Source: Tidjanibacter sp. (GTDB lineage: Bacteria > Bacteroidota > Bacteroidia > Bacteroidales > Rikenellaceae). Taken from it: DNA of 64,000 bases. The stretch spans positions 91,572-155,571 of the forward strand of contig JAZORC010000002.1 in assembly GCA_045656405.1 (NCBI GenBank), in the 5' to 3' direction. The number at the start of each line of letters is the position of its first letter. Position 1 is the stretch's first letter. Positions 48,957 to 59,110 of this stretch are shown in pieces. The position numbers and the translations under genes are program-made. Below the pieces are notes generated by a model. That model was not told the DNA's origin. It ran no database searches and saw nothing but the letters and a program-made list of their open reading frames with translations.

Positions 48957-50756
48957 ATGAGAGGTAACACCGGGCGAATGAGTCTTTGGGAGCGCTTTGT
49001 GCTCTGGCTCAATGTGCAGACCAGGCGTATCAGCACACGACAACTGACCTTCATTTTGGCAATCGTTGTGGGTTTGGTGTCGGGAGGTGTAACCTGCATT
49101 TTCGAATGGCTCTTGGGGCTCATTAAGGATGGCTTGACGAGCTGGTTCCCCAAGGAGGAGGTGGGTTGGCTCTACCTCTTGTACCCTATGGTGGGTATCA
49201 TTCTGGCGAGCCTCTTTGTGCGCCTGATAGTCAAAGACGACATCTCGGAGGGGGTTACGAAGGTGCTCAAAGCGATGAGTACAACATCCTCGGAGATTAA
49301 GCCCCACAACTGCTACTCTTCGGTGGTGGGTGGCGCGCTGACCATTGGCTTTGGTGGTTCGGTAGGTCCCGAGGCACCTATTGTGCTGACGGGTGCCGCC
49401 ATAGGCTCCAACATCGGTAGGCTGCTCAAACTCAACTACCGCAACCTGACGCTGATGTTGGCGTGTGGTGTGGCTGCGGCCCTCTCGGCAATCTTCAAAG
49501 CCCCCATTACGGGTGTGATTTTCGTGATGGAGATTCTGCTCTTGGATATGAGTATGACGGCCATCATTCCTCTGATTATCTCCTCCGTAACGGCTGTGAC
49601 GCTCACCTTCTTTGTGCGAGGCTTTGAGCCTATGCTCTCGGCGAGCACCATTGGCGACCTCGCCTTCTCACATATTCCCATCTACCTGCTCTTGGCGCTA
49701 TTGTGTGGCCTTATGTGCTACTACTTTATGAACATCAACTTCCGCGTTAAGAAGGTTATCGACCGACTCGGAGTGCAGTGGAAGAAGTGGCTCGTGGGTG
49801 GCTTGGCATTGGGTGTTATGATTCTGCTTTTTCCCCCGCTCTATGGTGAGGGTTACGGAATCTTCCACCACTTTATGACGGGCGATGTACAGGCGGTTTT
49901 CGACAACTCGGGCTTCTACGATTATAGGGAGAACCATTGGGTTGTAGTGGGCTATATGTTGGCTATTATGTTTGTGAAGGTTGTGGCAATGGCTGTCACC
50001 AACTCTTCGGGAGGTGTGGGTGGAACCTTTGCGCCCTCACTCTTTGTGGGTGCATTCTTGGGTGCCATCACAGCCTATATGGGCAACACATTCTTTGATG
50101 CCGACCTCTCGATTGCGGCATTCTCATTGGTTGGTATGGCGGGCCTGATGTCGGGTGTTATGAAGGCACCCCTCACGGCAGTCTTCCTCATTGCCGAGAT
50201 TTCGAGTGCCTACCAACTATTTGTGCCTCTGATGCTTGTTTCGTGCGTGTCGTATGTCATCAACCGCTACCTCGAACCCGATAGTATCTACACCAAAACC
50301 CTCCGCAAGAAGGGACAACTTCTCACCCACGATAAGGACCAAGCTGTGAGCGTGGTTCTCTCGGTGCGCTCGCTCATTGAGACCAATATTTTGAGCGTCA
50401 GCGAGTATGACACGTTGGGCGATATGGTTGTGAGGGTTATTCCCCACACCACACGCAACATTTTCCCTGTGCTCGATGGTGAAAACCGACTGTTGGGAGT
50501 TGTTGAGTTCGACCGTTTGAGGAAGGATATGTTCGACCAGAGCAAGTACCCCAATTCGGTGCAACGCTATATGACACCCCCTGCGGATGTTATCTACGAG
50601 GGCGAGTCGGCATCGAGTGTGCTCGAAAAGTTCGAGACGACAGGTGCGTGGAACCTCCCCGTTGTGGATAATAATAAGCAGTACCTCGGCTTTGTTAGCA
50701 AGTCCCACATTCTCACCGCCTACCGCGATAAACTCAAAGAGATGACACAAGAGTAG
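48957..50756 (+). CDS. ClC family chloride channel/transporter with CBS domains
   Basis: GGSVGPEAPI, GGVGGTFAP; two C-terminal CBS repeats. Confidence 0.9.
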   Translation: MRGNTGRMSLWERFVLWLNVQTRRISTRQLTFILAIVVGLVSGGVTCIFEWLLGLIKDGLTSWFPKEEVGWLYLLYPMVGIILASLFVRLIVKDDISEGVTKVLKAMSTTSSEIKPHNCYSSVVGGALTIGFGGSVGPEAPIVLTGAAIGSNIGRLLKLNYRNLTLMLACGVAAALSAIFKAPITGVIFVMEILLLDMSMTAIIPLIISSVTAVTLTFFVRGFEPMLSASTIGDLAFSHIPIYLLLALLCGLMCYYFMNINFRVKKVIDRLGVQWKKWLVGGLALGVMILLFPPLYGEGYGIFHHFMTGDVQAVFDNSGFYDYRENHWVVVGYMLAIMFVKVVAMAVTNSSGGVGGTFAPSLFVGAFLGAITAYMGNTFFDADLSIAAFSLVGMAGLMSGVMKAPLTAVFLIAEISSAYQLFVPLMLVSCVSYVINRYLEPDSIYTKTLRKKGQLLTHDKDQAVSVVLSVRSLIETNILSVSEYDTLGDMVVRVIPHTTRNIFPVLDGENRLLGVVEFDRLRKDMFDQSKYPNSVQRYMTPPADVIYEGESASSVLEKFETTGAWNLPVVDNNKQYLGFVSKSHILTAYRDKLKEMTQE

Positions 50757-50791: not shown

Positions 50792-51278
50792 ACACACGCC
50801 CCCGCCCTTCGGGCACCCCCTCTAACATAGAGGGGGAATAGTTGCTATACGATGAGGAATGAGAGGATAAATAATTTGGTTGAGCAGAAGGATTTGCGTC
50901 GTAAATTGCGCCGAAAATCGACTCCCGAGGAGATTGCACTCTGGAAGGTATTGAAGGGGAAACAGGTTGCAGGATGCCAATTCCGTCGCCAATTTTCGGT
51001 GGGGGTATATGTGTTGGATTTCTATTGTCCCAAGGCTAAATTATGTGTAGAAGTGGATGGTATGATGCACCATTCGGAGGAAAATCAAAAACACGACAAG
51101 GCTCGCGATGCATTCCTCGCCACACGAGGAATAGAGGTGTTAAGGGTTGATAATCAAGCATTGTGGAGTTGTAGCGATTTGGTTGTTGCAACAATTCAAG
51201 ATAGATTAAAAGTCCGTCTTGCGGATAAAAATTCCCCCTCTAAATTAGAGGGGGTGCCCGAAGGGCGGGGGCGTGTGT
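50792..51278. mobile_element. Putative minimal element: DUF559 gene bounded by 48-bp inverted repeats
   Basis: 50792-50839 and 51231-51278 are reverse complements at 46/48 nt; no TSD seen. Confidence 0.6.
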
Positions 51279-51310
51279 CATTGAGTGAATGGAAAGAGGA
51301 ATTCCAATGA
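50852..51310 (+). CDS. DUF559 (Vsr-like PD-(D/E)xK) endonuclease-domain protein
   Basis: RKLRRKSTPEE.LW, FRRQFSVG.YVLDFYC, EVDG..H, DKARD.FL..RGIEVLR. Confidence 0.9.
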   Translation: MRNERINNLVEQKDLRRKLRRKSTPEEIALWKVLKGKQVAGCQFRRQFSVGVYVLDFYCPKAKLCVEVDGMMHHSEENQKHDKARDAFLATRGIEVLRVDNQALWSCSDLVVATIQDRLKVRLADKNSPSKLEGVPEGRGRVSLSEWKEEFQ

Positions 51311-52455
51311 AGATAAATTTTCTGGGGCCGGCGTTTCCCTATCGTGGAGGTCTGGCGACAATCATAGAGAGCCTGGCAAGGGAGTTTCAGGCGAGGGGTA
51401 ACGAGGTGACCATCGACACATTCTCGTTGCAGTACCCACGCCTATTGTTCCCTGGTAAGAGCCAATTCCGCACAGGCGAGAAGCCTCACGATATTGCTAT
51501 TGCCCGCACGGTGAGCACTGTGGGACCACTCTCGTGGTGGAGGGTGGGGCGTAGGCTCCGTAGGGAGGCCCCCGATGCTGTGGTATTGAAATATTGGACA
51601 CCACTGATGGCTCCCTGCTTCGGTACCATCTGTCGCTTGGCGCGCAAAAATGGCAAAACAAAAGTTATTGTTCATCTCGATAATATCACTCCCCACGAGC
51701 CCCACTTCTACGATAGAGTGCTGAATCGCTATTTTCTCGCCTCGTGCGATGGTTTTATCTATATGTCCGAGGCTGTCAATCGCGATTTGCGCACTTTTCT
51801 GCCAAATCCGAAGGCACTCTTCTCACCCCATCCACTCTTTGATAACTATGGCGCGAAGGTGCCCCGAGAGGAGGCGTGTGCCCGCTTGGGCCTCGATTCC
51901 AAGCAGAGCTATGTGATGTTCTTCGGCTATGTGAGGGAGTATAAGGGGCTGGATATCTTGCTCGATGCGTGGGCTCTCTTGAAGGCCGAGGGTAAGACGG
52001 TGGGTAGGAAACTGCTCGTTGTGGGCGAGGTCTATGGTAGCGATGCGAAATACCGTGAGCAGATTGAACGCTTGGGCTTGCAGGATGATGTGGTTGTGCA
52101 TAGCGACTTTGTGCCCGATGAGAAGGTGGCCGATTGGTTCTCGGTGGCCGATATGGTCGCCTTGCCATATAAGTCGGCAACCCAGAGTGGTGTCACACAG
52201 GTGGCCTATGCCTTCGATGTGCCTATGGTTGTAACCAATGTGGGTGGCTTGGCAGAGATGGTTGAGGATGATGTTGTGGGTGTGCTTGCCGAGGTGAGTG
52301 CCCGCTCGGTGGCCGATGCCATTGCCAAGGTCTATGAGGGCGACAACCTCACCCGCTACCGCGAGGGGGTGAGTCGCAATAAGGCCCGCTTCTCGTGGAG
52401 CGCCACAGCCGATAGGATAGAGGAACTTTTTAGGAGTCTAACGTCTAATGTCTAA
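51307..52455 (+). CDS. Glycosyltransferase family 4
   Basis: Start taken at MKINFLGPAFPYRGG; FFGYVREYKGLD; PYKSATQSGV. Confidence 0.92.
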   Translation: MKINFLGPAFPYRGGLATIIESLAREFQARGNEVTIDTFSLQYPRLLFPGKSQFRTGEKPHDIAIARTVSTVGPLSWWRVGRRLRREAPDAVVLKYWTPLMAPCFGTICRLARKNGKTKVIVHLDNITPHEPHFYDRVLNRYFLASCDGFIYMSEAVNRDLRTFLPNPKALFSPHPLFDNYGAKVPREEACARLGLDSKQSYVMFFGYVREYKGLDILLDAWALLKAEGKTVGRKLLVVGEVYGSDAKYREQIERLGLQDDVVVHSDFVPDEKVADWFSVADMVALPYKSATQSGVTQVAYAFDVPMVVTNVGGLAEMVEDDVVGVLAEVSARSVADAIAKVYEGDNLTRYREGVSRNKARFSWSATADRIEELFRSLTSNV

Positions 52456-52464: not shown

Positions 52465-52652
52465 TCTCGGGCTCAGTAAACCGCCGAGCCCGAGAACTTA
52501 TGGGAGTTCTATGTTTTTCAGAGTTCTTCTAACCCCTCCATCAAATAAAGACTCGGGGCACACCAAAATGGCGTGCCCCGAGTCTTTTGACTTTCGACGT
52601 TAGACTACAAAAGATAGTGGCTTGGTAATTTTACCAAGCCACTATCTTTTGT
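52465..52652. terminator. Three hairpins between convergent genes
   Basis: Stems 52465-52495, 52547-52587 (15 bp) and 52607-52652 (22-bp perfect). Confidence 0.75.
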
Positions 52653-58959: not shown

Positions 58960-58967
58960 CGAAAAAG

Positions 58968-58995
58968 AATTGAGAATTGAAAATTGAGAATTGAG
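58968..58995 (+). repeat. AATTGAR heptamer array (4 copies)
   Basis: AATTGAG AATTGAA AATTGAG AATTGAG. Confidence 0.95.
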
Positions 58996-59038
58996 ATTTA
59001 TCTCCCCCAAGGGGAGATTTGGAGGGATAAATGGCCTG

Positions 59039-59110
59039 TGAGTCATATAACTTCAATAGGTCTAATAAGTCTAATAAGTCCTATAATCCCCATAGGTTCT
59101 ATACGTTCTA
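59039..59110 (+). repeat. Degenerate 9-mer array (8 units)
   Basis: TGAGTCATA TAACTTCAA TAGGTCTAA TAAGTCTAA TAAGTCCTA TAATCCCCA TAGGTTCTA TACGTTCTA. Confidence 0.8.

Follow-up and report, generated by a model that had tools for sequence, protein, structure and literature searches.

The clc–GT4 locus

The window analysed here, a 64,000-nt stretch of contig JAZORC010000002.1 from Tidjanibacter sp. (positions 91,572 to 155,571, forward strand), contains a small gene of the DUF559 family that lies between the genes for a CLC chloride channel and a GT4 glycosyltransferase and is enclosed by two inverted, hairpin-bearing repeats (Table 1). The original prediction, made from this sequence alone, had described the two repeat arms as reverse complements that differ only in a hairpin loop, each with a small GCCC hairpin and a G-rich tail, and this description is borne out in full: a repeat finder pairs the arms over 48 nt at 46 of 48 positions (96%), with 391 nt between them, and both mismatches are confined to the 3-nt loop of the first hairpin (hairpin 1; ACA versus AAT). 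From hairpin 1 outward, each arm consists of (A/T)(A/T)T, the hairpin CCCCCTCTA-nnn-TAGAGGGGG, a single T, a second hairpin (hairpin 2; GCCC-GAA-GGGC, or GCCC-TTC-GGGC when read on the other strand) and the tail GGGGGCGTGTGT. When folded as single-stranded DNA (ssDNA), both arms form the two hairpins, at −13.5 and −12.9 kcal/mol and with z scores of about −4 (−3.8 and −4.3), matched by none of 200 shuffles. The core of the hairpin, and likewise the outer 33 nt, is present in exactly two copies in the 64-kb window, whereas shuffled sequences lead one to expect none.

Table 1. Coordinates of the DUF559 locus, its repeat units and related features (window numbering)
Feature	Position	Strand	Remark
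CLC chloride channel with CBS domains	48957..50756	+	upstream host gene; left border of the insertion site
Inserted block, unit–DUF559–unit (487 bp)	50792..51278	+	missing from the clc/GT4 gap of four relatives
Left repeat unit	50792..50839	-	tail outward
Left unit, tail ACACACGCCCCC	50792-50803		
Left unit, hairpin 2 GCCCTTCGGGC	50804-50814		
Left unit, hairpin 1 CCCCCTCTAACATAGAGGGGG	50816-50836		followed by AAT
Open reading frame (ORF) of predicted DUF559 / Vsr-like PD-(D/E)xK nuclease (152 aa)	50852..51310	+	core approximately residues 10-126
Right repeat unit	51231..51278	+	tail outward; begins with ATT
Right unit, hairpin 1	51234-51254		followed by T
Right unit, hairpin 2 GCCCGAAGGGC	51256-51266		
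Right unit, tail GGGGGCGTGTGT	51267-51278		
GT4 glycosyltransferase	51307..52455	+	downstream host gene; ATG overlaps the DUF559 stop codon (ATGA)
Candidate solo short unit, related family	59000..59028	+	ATCTCCCC-CAA-GGGGAGAT, then TT GGAGGGAT; intergenic; likeness by eye only

The enclosed gene is intact, as had been proposed: ORF 50852-51310 matches Pfam DUF559 (PF04480) over residues 12–119 (E = 4e-28), and its score of 97.9 bits is well above the curated cut-off (20.6). In the AF2 model, the core has a predicted local distance difference test (pLDDT) score of about 90, and residues 128–152 fall below 50. PDB entry 3HRL, a DUF559 structure from structural genomics, aligns to the core (E = 2.5e-12) and is also the best Foldseek match to the model (3.5e-6), followed by 3R3P, the catalytic domain of the homing endonuclease I-Bth0305I (2e-4); 1VSR, E. 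coli Vsr, stands at rank 12, and the further structural matches include the nuclease domains of PvuRts1I and AbaSI. Five residues of catalytic type, D56, E67, D69, H73 and D82, do not vary across 28 homologues. The ORF is predicted to encode an intact Vsr-like PD-(D/E)xK nuclease; in a survey of PD-(D/E)XK proteins, Vsr, DUF559 and I-Bth0305I fall into a single clade (PMC3424549).

The composition of the DUF559 gene is foreign to its surroundings. TTA codons, noted previously as nearly missing from the adjacent core genes, account for 4 of its 153 codons and for none in the genes for TrpRS, CLC and GT4 (1.28 per 1000 codons over 46 long ORFs), and the GC content at third codon positions is 0.45, compared with 0.63–0.67 in those three genes. 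The space between the left unit and the DUF559 ATG is too small for a separate promoter. The window neighbours (an ABC transporter, TrpRS, CLC, GT4, an MFS protein and a TPR protein) include no transposase, and no target-site duplication is present at the window block, whose flanks read ...AATTTT on the left and CATTGA... on the right, five independent junction pairs having been examined in all with the same outcome; both negatives agree with what had been read from the sequence beforehand.

The ORF does run on through the right arm (peptide NSPSKLEGVPEGRGRV), with its TGA overlapping the GT4 ATG at 51307, so that the right repeat and the spacer supply residues 127–152, for which disorder is predicted. 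This read-through, noted in the original prediction, is incidental, because the orthologous gene at locus L087 has its own TAA just before the unit; the disorder of the tail in the AF2 model is in line with this. Three other proteins (P0025, P0026 and P0028; 211–254 aa) derive from ORFs called through flanking units and carry the repeat-encoded terminal extensions NSPSKLEGVPERRGRV and SPNLGEQ, with repeat peptide at both termini, corresponding to a direct arrangement of the units. Such extensions of DUF559 proteins may be a widespread annotation artefact, one that explains how repeat peptides such as that of the window become fused to predicted proteins.

Filled and empty sites in relatives

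The identical DUF559 protein occurs in the order clc–DUF559–GT4 on six contigs from metagenomes or metagenome-assembled genomes, and the source names on CLC and DUF559 homologues are those of Tidjanibacter (Rikenellaceae). A comparison of this site among relatives, suggested at the outset as a check, yielded four in which it is empty: L207 (94% CLC identity), L208–L210 (90%), L211–L212 (87%) and L213 (79%). In these, the gap between clc and GT4 measures 21–72 nt and holds no unit. By contrast, L087 (Tidjanibacter SGB_4438; CLC 78.5%) is filled, with a unit on the minus strand, DUF559 and two units on the plus strand; its DUF559 is 66% identical to that of the window by tblastn, and the orthologues P0005/P0006 are 73–74% identical over the core. 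The unit–gene–unit block at this site is therefore gained or lost as one entity, and the 487-bp block of the window is an insertion. A tree of CLC sequences pairs the window with the empty L207 as its sister and puts the one remaining filled genome, L087, farthest out among the six; this requires either two gains at one site or three to four clean losses. Alignment of filled with empty sites did not yield exact insertion boundaries, the intergenic DNA being too diverged even against the 94% relative.

The empty site of L207 (5800-5858) holds an 8-nt sequence, TGTGTCAT, identical to the final 5 nt of the unit tail together with 3 nt of the flank to its right (window 51270-51285). This match could be a footprint or chance.

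A dispersed family of two-hairpin units

The 48-mer is not unique. It is a member of a multi-copy dispersed family in related genomes that resembles repetitive extragenic palindromes (REPs), and not a private terminal repeat. A search by exact hairpin-1 match with one genome per species, for which all counts are lower bounds, found hairpin 1 in at least 155 copies at no fewer than 120 loci in at least 56 species-level assemblies. Among the matches listed, 52 of 56 assemblies are labelled Bacteroidales, with Prevotellaceae, Tidjanibacter/Rikenellaceae, Muribaculaceae, Porphyromonadaceae, Bacteroidaceae and Paludibacteraceae represented; two are unlabelled (RUG12478 and UBP6_UBA1177), and the two non-Bacteroidales matches are without the tail. 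Also among these matches, many isolate names cite rumen, omasum, caecum or rectum, single genomes hold up to at least nine loci, and 130 of 140 units are intergenic.

The units are built from a C/G-rich stem of 9 bp, in some cases a second hairpin, and the tail GGGGGCGTGTGT, with hairpin 1 and the tail conserved. They fall into a long class, in which hairpin 1 is followed by TG, hairpin 2 and GGGGGCGTGTGT, and a short class, in which hairpin 1 is followed by two or three variable bases and then by GGGGGGAGTATGA or GGGGGAGTGTGT. Between the conserved segments, hairpin 2 is hypervariable, with 50 different sequences in 89 long units (among the matches listed), and still folds with at least 4 bp in 98% of long units as against 20% of shuffles. 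Across 23 distinct 49-nt units, all five hairpin-2 pairs covary, changing on both sides, and 99.1% of cells are paired; the covariation score is 0.254 versus 0.065, a value that none of 500 shuffles exceeds, and slid registers are about 50% paired. Hairpin 2 is thus conserved in structure only, not in sequence. Its commonest loops are GAA, GTA, GCA and GGA, that is, GNA triloops closed by C:G, which typify very stable DNA mini-hairpins and not RNA hairpins.

Further features accompany the units. L044 contains a four-unit tandem array (2561-2912; spacing 99–116 nt) about 340 nt from a tRNA gene (2147-2220). A segment close to TTTGAAAATCATTGCGTTAGCAACT is conserved 30 nt upstream of hairpin 1 in L014, L017, L025, L031, L055, L080, L107, L118 and L120, which hints that the repeat is composite and longer in Prevotellaceae, Porphyromonadaceae and Muribaculaceae. 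Units also very often abut 7–9-nt tandem repeats whose sequence differs by locus (GAAAATT, GAATTGA, GTTAGTG, CTTAAAGCC and GCTAATG), as at L087 2081-2125 and in the flanks of L012, L015, L019, L029, L046, L052, L059, L066 and L091; similar heptamer repeats are present in empty, unit-free clc–GT4 sites (L208 and L213). These short tandem repeats may reflect a target preference or be a by-product of insertion. A phage-borne element was considered and rejected, all viral contigs together giving 3 hairpin matches and 6 DUF559 relatives.

DUF559 is the recurrent neighbour of the units

The genes beside units, called from ORFs and hence crudely, comprise 209 distinct ORFs, among which DUF559 is the largest shared family, with five loci in five species among the matches listed; the next clusters, BspA-type leucine-rich repeat proteins and large unannotated proteins, have three members each. 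The DUF559 neighbour loci represent at least three labelled families, L037 being unlabelled. A Pfam scan of 130 neighbour ORFs also places DUF559 first, with four members, all other families having two or fewer, and no recurrent transposase family or other recurrent enzyme was found among the 209 ORFs adjoining units.

The association runs in the other direction as well. Units flank the gene to left and right at each of the ten Bacteroidales DUF559 loci examined, and these loci occupy four different host sites: in addition to clc–GT4, close homologues (57–70% identity) lie at dNK–RsmF, M13 peptidase–RelA and Mfa–Mfa, invariably with units on both sides. Sought in the window as further empty sites, dNK–RsmF and M13 peptidase–RelA both proved to lie outside the 64 kb. 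In most Bacteroidales loci, DUF559 is co-oriented with both of its neighbours.

It extends, moreover, to distant relatives (69 testable loci at 39–52% identity, on contigs whose names include marine, human-gut and Hainich samples). A flank-to-flank similarity score of at least 14 was reached at 44 of the 69 loci but at only 2 of 152 displaced controls, the 44 comprising 23 inverted, 14 direct and 7 palindrome-only cases. Perfect C/G-rich hairpins within 180 nt occur on both sides at 40 of 69 loci (controls, 0 of 153) and on one side at 14 (controls, 5 of 153); chance would account for about 3 two-sided loci in 69 even if all background hairpins (0.146 per kb) were intergenic. Enrichment of flanking repeats beside DUF559 homologues, which had been put forward as a check, is therefore strong. 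The units of these distant lineages typically read TCCCCTCCT-loop-AGGAGGGG, an optional second hairpin and then GGGGTGGT, the same architecture in other sequence, and further hairpins of this type are found on these contigs at distances above 400 nt. The unit variant differs from one DUF559 lineage to the next, which argues for co-evolution.

One DUF559 lineage is hairpin-less (L164 and L167, with a weak, different motif, and L171, L174, L182–L186 and L191); the contigs of L164, L167 and L171 are named as human-gut metagenome. An inverted repeat of 15 nt, AGAGGGGTTGAGAAA, is common to eight of its ten loci and lies about 175 nt to each side of the gene. The lineage may represent a decayed or domesticated state.

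These results bear on two alternatives. According to the first, the units are the ends of a conventional insertion sequence (IS) or miniature inverted-repeat transposable element (MITE) family that is moved in trans by an unlinked transposase, with DUF559 as a passenger or a preferred target. The 48-nt inverted ends of the window element are what such a family would display, and some inverted unit pairs, 60–300 nt apart and enclosing no gene, look MITE-like. We nevertheless regard this explanation as very improbable: most units are solo, neighbouring pairs are more often direct than inverted (14 versus 11; 14 direct, 7 tails-out and 4 tails-in among the matches listed), and the association with DUF559 holds across lineages with sequence-unrelated units. 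Of the hallmarks of classical IS and MITE elements, inverted repeats are present in the window, but there is neither a target-site duplication nor a transposase, whether beside the window block or as a recurrent family in the 209 neighbouring ORFs, and elsewhere the orientation of the units is variable.

According to the second, DUF559 is an ordinary host Vsr-like repair nuclease, and the hairpins are RNA-level or regulatory elements (insulators, translational brakes or stabilisers) around a potentially toxic gene, reused elsewhere as generic stem-loops. Caulobacter VsrA, a DUF559 protein, acts as a DNA-damaging, repair-type nuclease (PMC12907096), and hairpins have been found in the 5′ untranslated regions of free-standing Vsr-like endonuclease genes in 15 of 16 cases, where they were read as translational control (PMC2677866). 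The co-orientation of DUF559 with its neighbours at most Bacteroidales loci, and a slight excess of sense-oriented units downstream of genes (66 versus 43 among the matches listed, relative to the gene on the 5′ side), are also in its favour. Yet a host gene of this kind sits poorly with presence or absence at a conserved site and with close homologues at four unrelated sites, and units are found to both sides of the gene, pointing either way, and for the most part nowhere near a DUF559. The units are without a T-tract, so that intrinsic terminators were rejected; one terminator-like call (51254-51234, minus strand) hinges on local A-rich codons. No Rfam family matches the units, with nothing beyond one sub-threshold chance match at the window locus and no match at 20 other loci, and the C:G-closed GNA triloops are typical of DNA rather than RNA. 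No cytosine-5 methyltransferase gene is among those called within about 5 kb of the window DUF559, which is weak evidence because Caulobacter VsrA is likewise unlinked to a methyltransferase gene (PMC12907096). Taken together, these observations make a host repair gene quite unlikely.

Unit orientation and a three-state locus

The orientation of units around DUF559 varies. The tails point outward in the window, L087, L215 and L217 and inward in L013, and the units are in direct orientation in L037 and L220; in L218, L023, L130, L146 and L197, DUF559 lies between direct copies of a unit doublet or triplet of 100–150 nt. The M13 peptidase–RelA site exists in three states: without any unit (L232 and L233), with a mixed doublet alone (L231) and as doublet–DUF559–doublet (L218). 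The sequence after the second doublet of L218 matches that after the single doublet of L231. This pattern would be expected if a circle of gene plus doublet had integrated into a resident doublet, and equally if the gene had been lost by recombination between doublets; solo units or doublets can be remnants at places where the gene is absent. A fixed terminal-inverted-repeat transposon was rejected as a model because the orientation varies, and with the three-state locus also considered, a simple 'terminal inverted repeat transposon' model is too narrow. The arms of the window therefore cannot be taken as fixed terminal inverted repeats of a discrete transposon, given that units elsewhere stand tails-out, tails-in or direct around DUF559.

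A second hairpin family, CTCCCCTA-nnn-TAGGGGAG with a variable second hairpin and a GGAGGAGTGTG tail, encodes the peptide SPNLGE. It co-resides with the first family in mixed doublets (L218 2845-2990 and 3375-3565, L231 5595-5690, and in L037, L023 and L220).

A further alternative is that a free-standing, homing-type DUF559 cassette lands in existing units or doublets, which themselves spread by other means or are old and inert; in this it would resemble REP-targeting insertion sequences. The Vsr-like homing endonuclease I-Bth0305I is among the closest solved structures (PMC3424549), the M13 peptidase–RelA site has doublet-only and doublet–gene–doublet states, gene-less units and doublets exist in all orientations, and a unit is present elsewhere in the sister genome, whose clc–GT4 site is empty (L101 and L207 belong to one assembly). 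However, the empty clc–GT4 sites hold no unit, so that here the block came or went as a whole, no other candidate enzyme recurs beside units, and the lineage-specific unit variants argue for co-evolution. We consider a cassette of this kind unlikely.

A proposed nuclease-plus-hairpin system

The reading that we favour, with belief and doubt in about equal measure, is that DUF559 and the units form a system similar to REPs and their REP-associated tyrosine transposases (RAYTs), in which a nuclease is paired with hairpins and the gene is gained and lost through the repeats. The observations of the original prediction all hold, and its interpretation is supported in part. The REP/RAYT analogy, first drawn from the window alone, is apt as a pattern because all three checks that could have refuted it failed to do so and because DUF559 is the sole recurrent neighbour, with no recurrent transposase; a view of the arms as fixed termini of a discrete element is not supported. 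The data suggest a nuclease-plus-repeat selfish system of a previously undescribed kind, and no description of a DUF559–repeat association was found in the literature.

We infer that DUF559 acts on the units, recognising the hairpins and spreading them, and the steps proposed here, including cut site and repair route, are conditional on this. The nuclease would recognise the folded unit, either as ssDNA or as a cruciform, and would nick it in or close to the hypervariable stretch that joins hairpin 1 to the G-rich tail. Copying repair or recombination between units would then spread the units and carry the gene between unit pairs, and recombination between flanking units would delete the gene, leaving solo units or doublets. 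Speculatively, the hypervariable palindromic linker between two conserved segments is the likeliest site of breakage and rejoining. A wider version of this proposal, which we hold only tentatively and think more apt to fail than to stand, is a transposase-free selfish system in which the Vsr-like nuclease partners a poly-C/poly-G hairpin superfamily across several phyla, cutting folded units while recombination moves the gene; hairpin-templated repair might then keep hairpin 2 palindromic while its sequence drifts.

Several points weigh against a nuclease-plus-hairpin system. A PD-(D/E)xK nuclease by itself cannot carry out strand transfer. DUF559 adjoins only 10 of 155 sampled units, most units being solo, and 15 of 69 distant relatives, including a human-gut lineage, are without flanking hairpins. 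Unit orientation around DUF559 is not fixed, unlike that of defined transposon ends, and the covariation in hairpin 2 could instead stem from selection at the RNA level. Finally, Caulobacter VsrA, the one DUF559 protein for which a functional study was found, was interpreted as a mismatch-repair nuclease (PMC12907096).

Among known systems, REP/REPIN–RAYT (TnpA-REP) is similar in having short palindromic intergenic units, present as singlets and doublets, a nuclease-type gene flanked by units, covarying stems and no observed target-site duplication. Extragenic dispersal and a unit-flanked gene are found here too, but the enzyme is a predicted Vsr-like PD-(D/E)xK protein and not an HUH Y1 transposase, and the units have two hairpins and a G-rich 3′ tail in place of a GTAG/CGTC head (PMC3733652). 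The orientation around the gene varies, and the gene is polymorphic among close relatives rather than a stable single-copy resident. The CGTC-tagged REPs (Di Nocera et al. 2013) likewise are dispersed palindromes, including in Bacteroidetes, for which no transposase was found (PMC3733652), whereas the present units have a poly-C/poly-G stem, a second hairpin and a G-rich tail, with DUF559 as candidate partner gene; CGTC occurs in 8 of 142 unit tails among the matches listed. With the IS200/IS605 family, the units share end hairpins, the lack of target-site duplication and features fitting an ssDNA substrate, but there is no TnpA (Y1) or TnpB, hairpin orientation varies and solo units far outnumber gene-bearing copies.

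The likeness to Vsr-like homing endonuclease genes of the I-Bth0305I type lies in the fold, the small free-standing gene and its presence or absence among relatives: at clc–GT4 the window and L087 have the gene and L207, L208, L211 and L213 do not, and at M13 peptidase–RelA it is present in L218 but not in L231–L233. Those homing genes, however, occupy introns, phage genes or the space between split inteins and home to one specific gene, whereas DUF559 here is intergenic between dispersed repeat copies and almost absent from viral contigs. Vsr and Caulobacter VsrA share with DUF559 the Pfam clan, the fold and conserved acidic and histidine residues, but DUF559 here is mobile or patchy, bracketed by repeats and without a methyltransferase gene called within about 5 kb.

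If the wider version of the proposal is right, DUF559 would be the missing enzyme of REP-like families without a RAYT. The association found here also supplies a second, unrelated case of a nuclease gene nested in its own dispersed palindromes, an arrangement so far represented mainly by REP/RAYT. No function is generally accepted for the very large DUF559 family, and its reproducible link to hairpin units across lineages offers a concrete candidate substrate.

Other palindromes in the window

Between the convergent GT4 and MFS genes lies a perfect 46-nt palindrome (52607-52652) with a 21-bp stem, followed by a T-rich run; it is probably a bidirectional terminator. The intergenic region 58967-59100 contains tandem repeats of the heptamer GAATTGA (about 58967-58996), the hairpin ATCTCCCC-CAA-GGGGAGAT with TTGGAGGGAT, and then 9-nt tandem repeats of TAATAAGTC. 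From its sequence, this hairpin is possibly a solo short unit of a related family.

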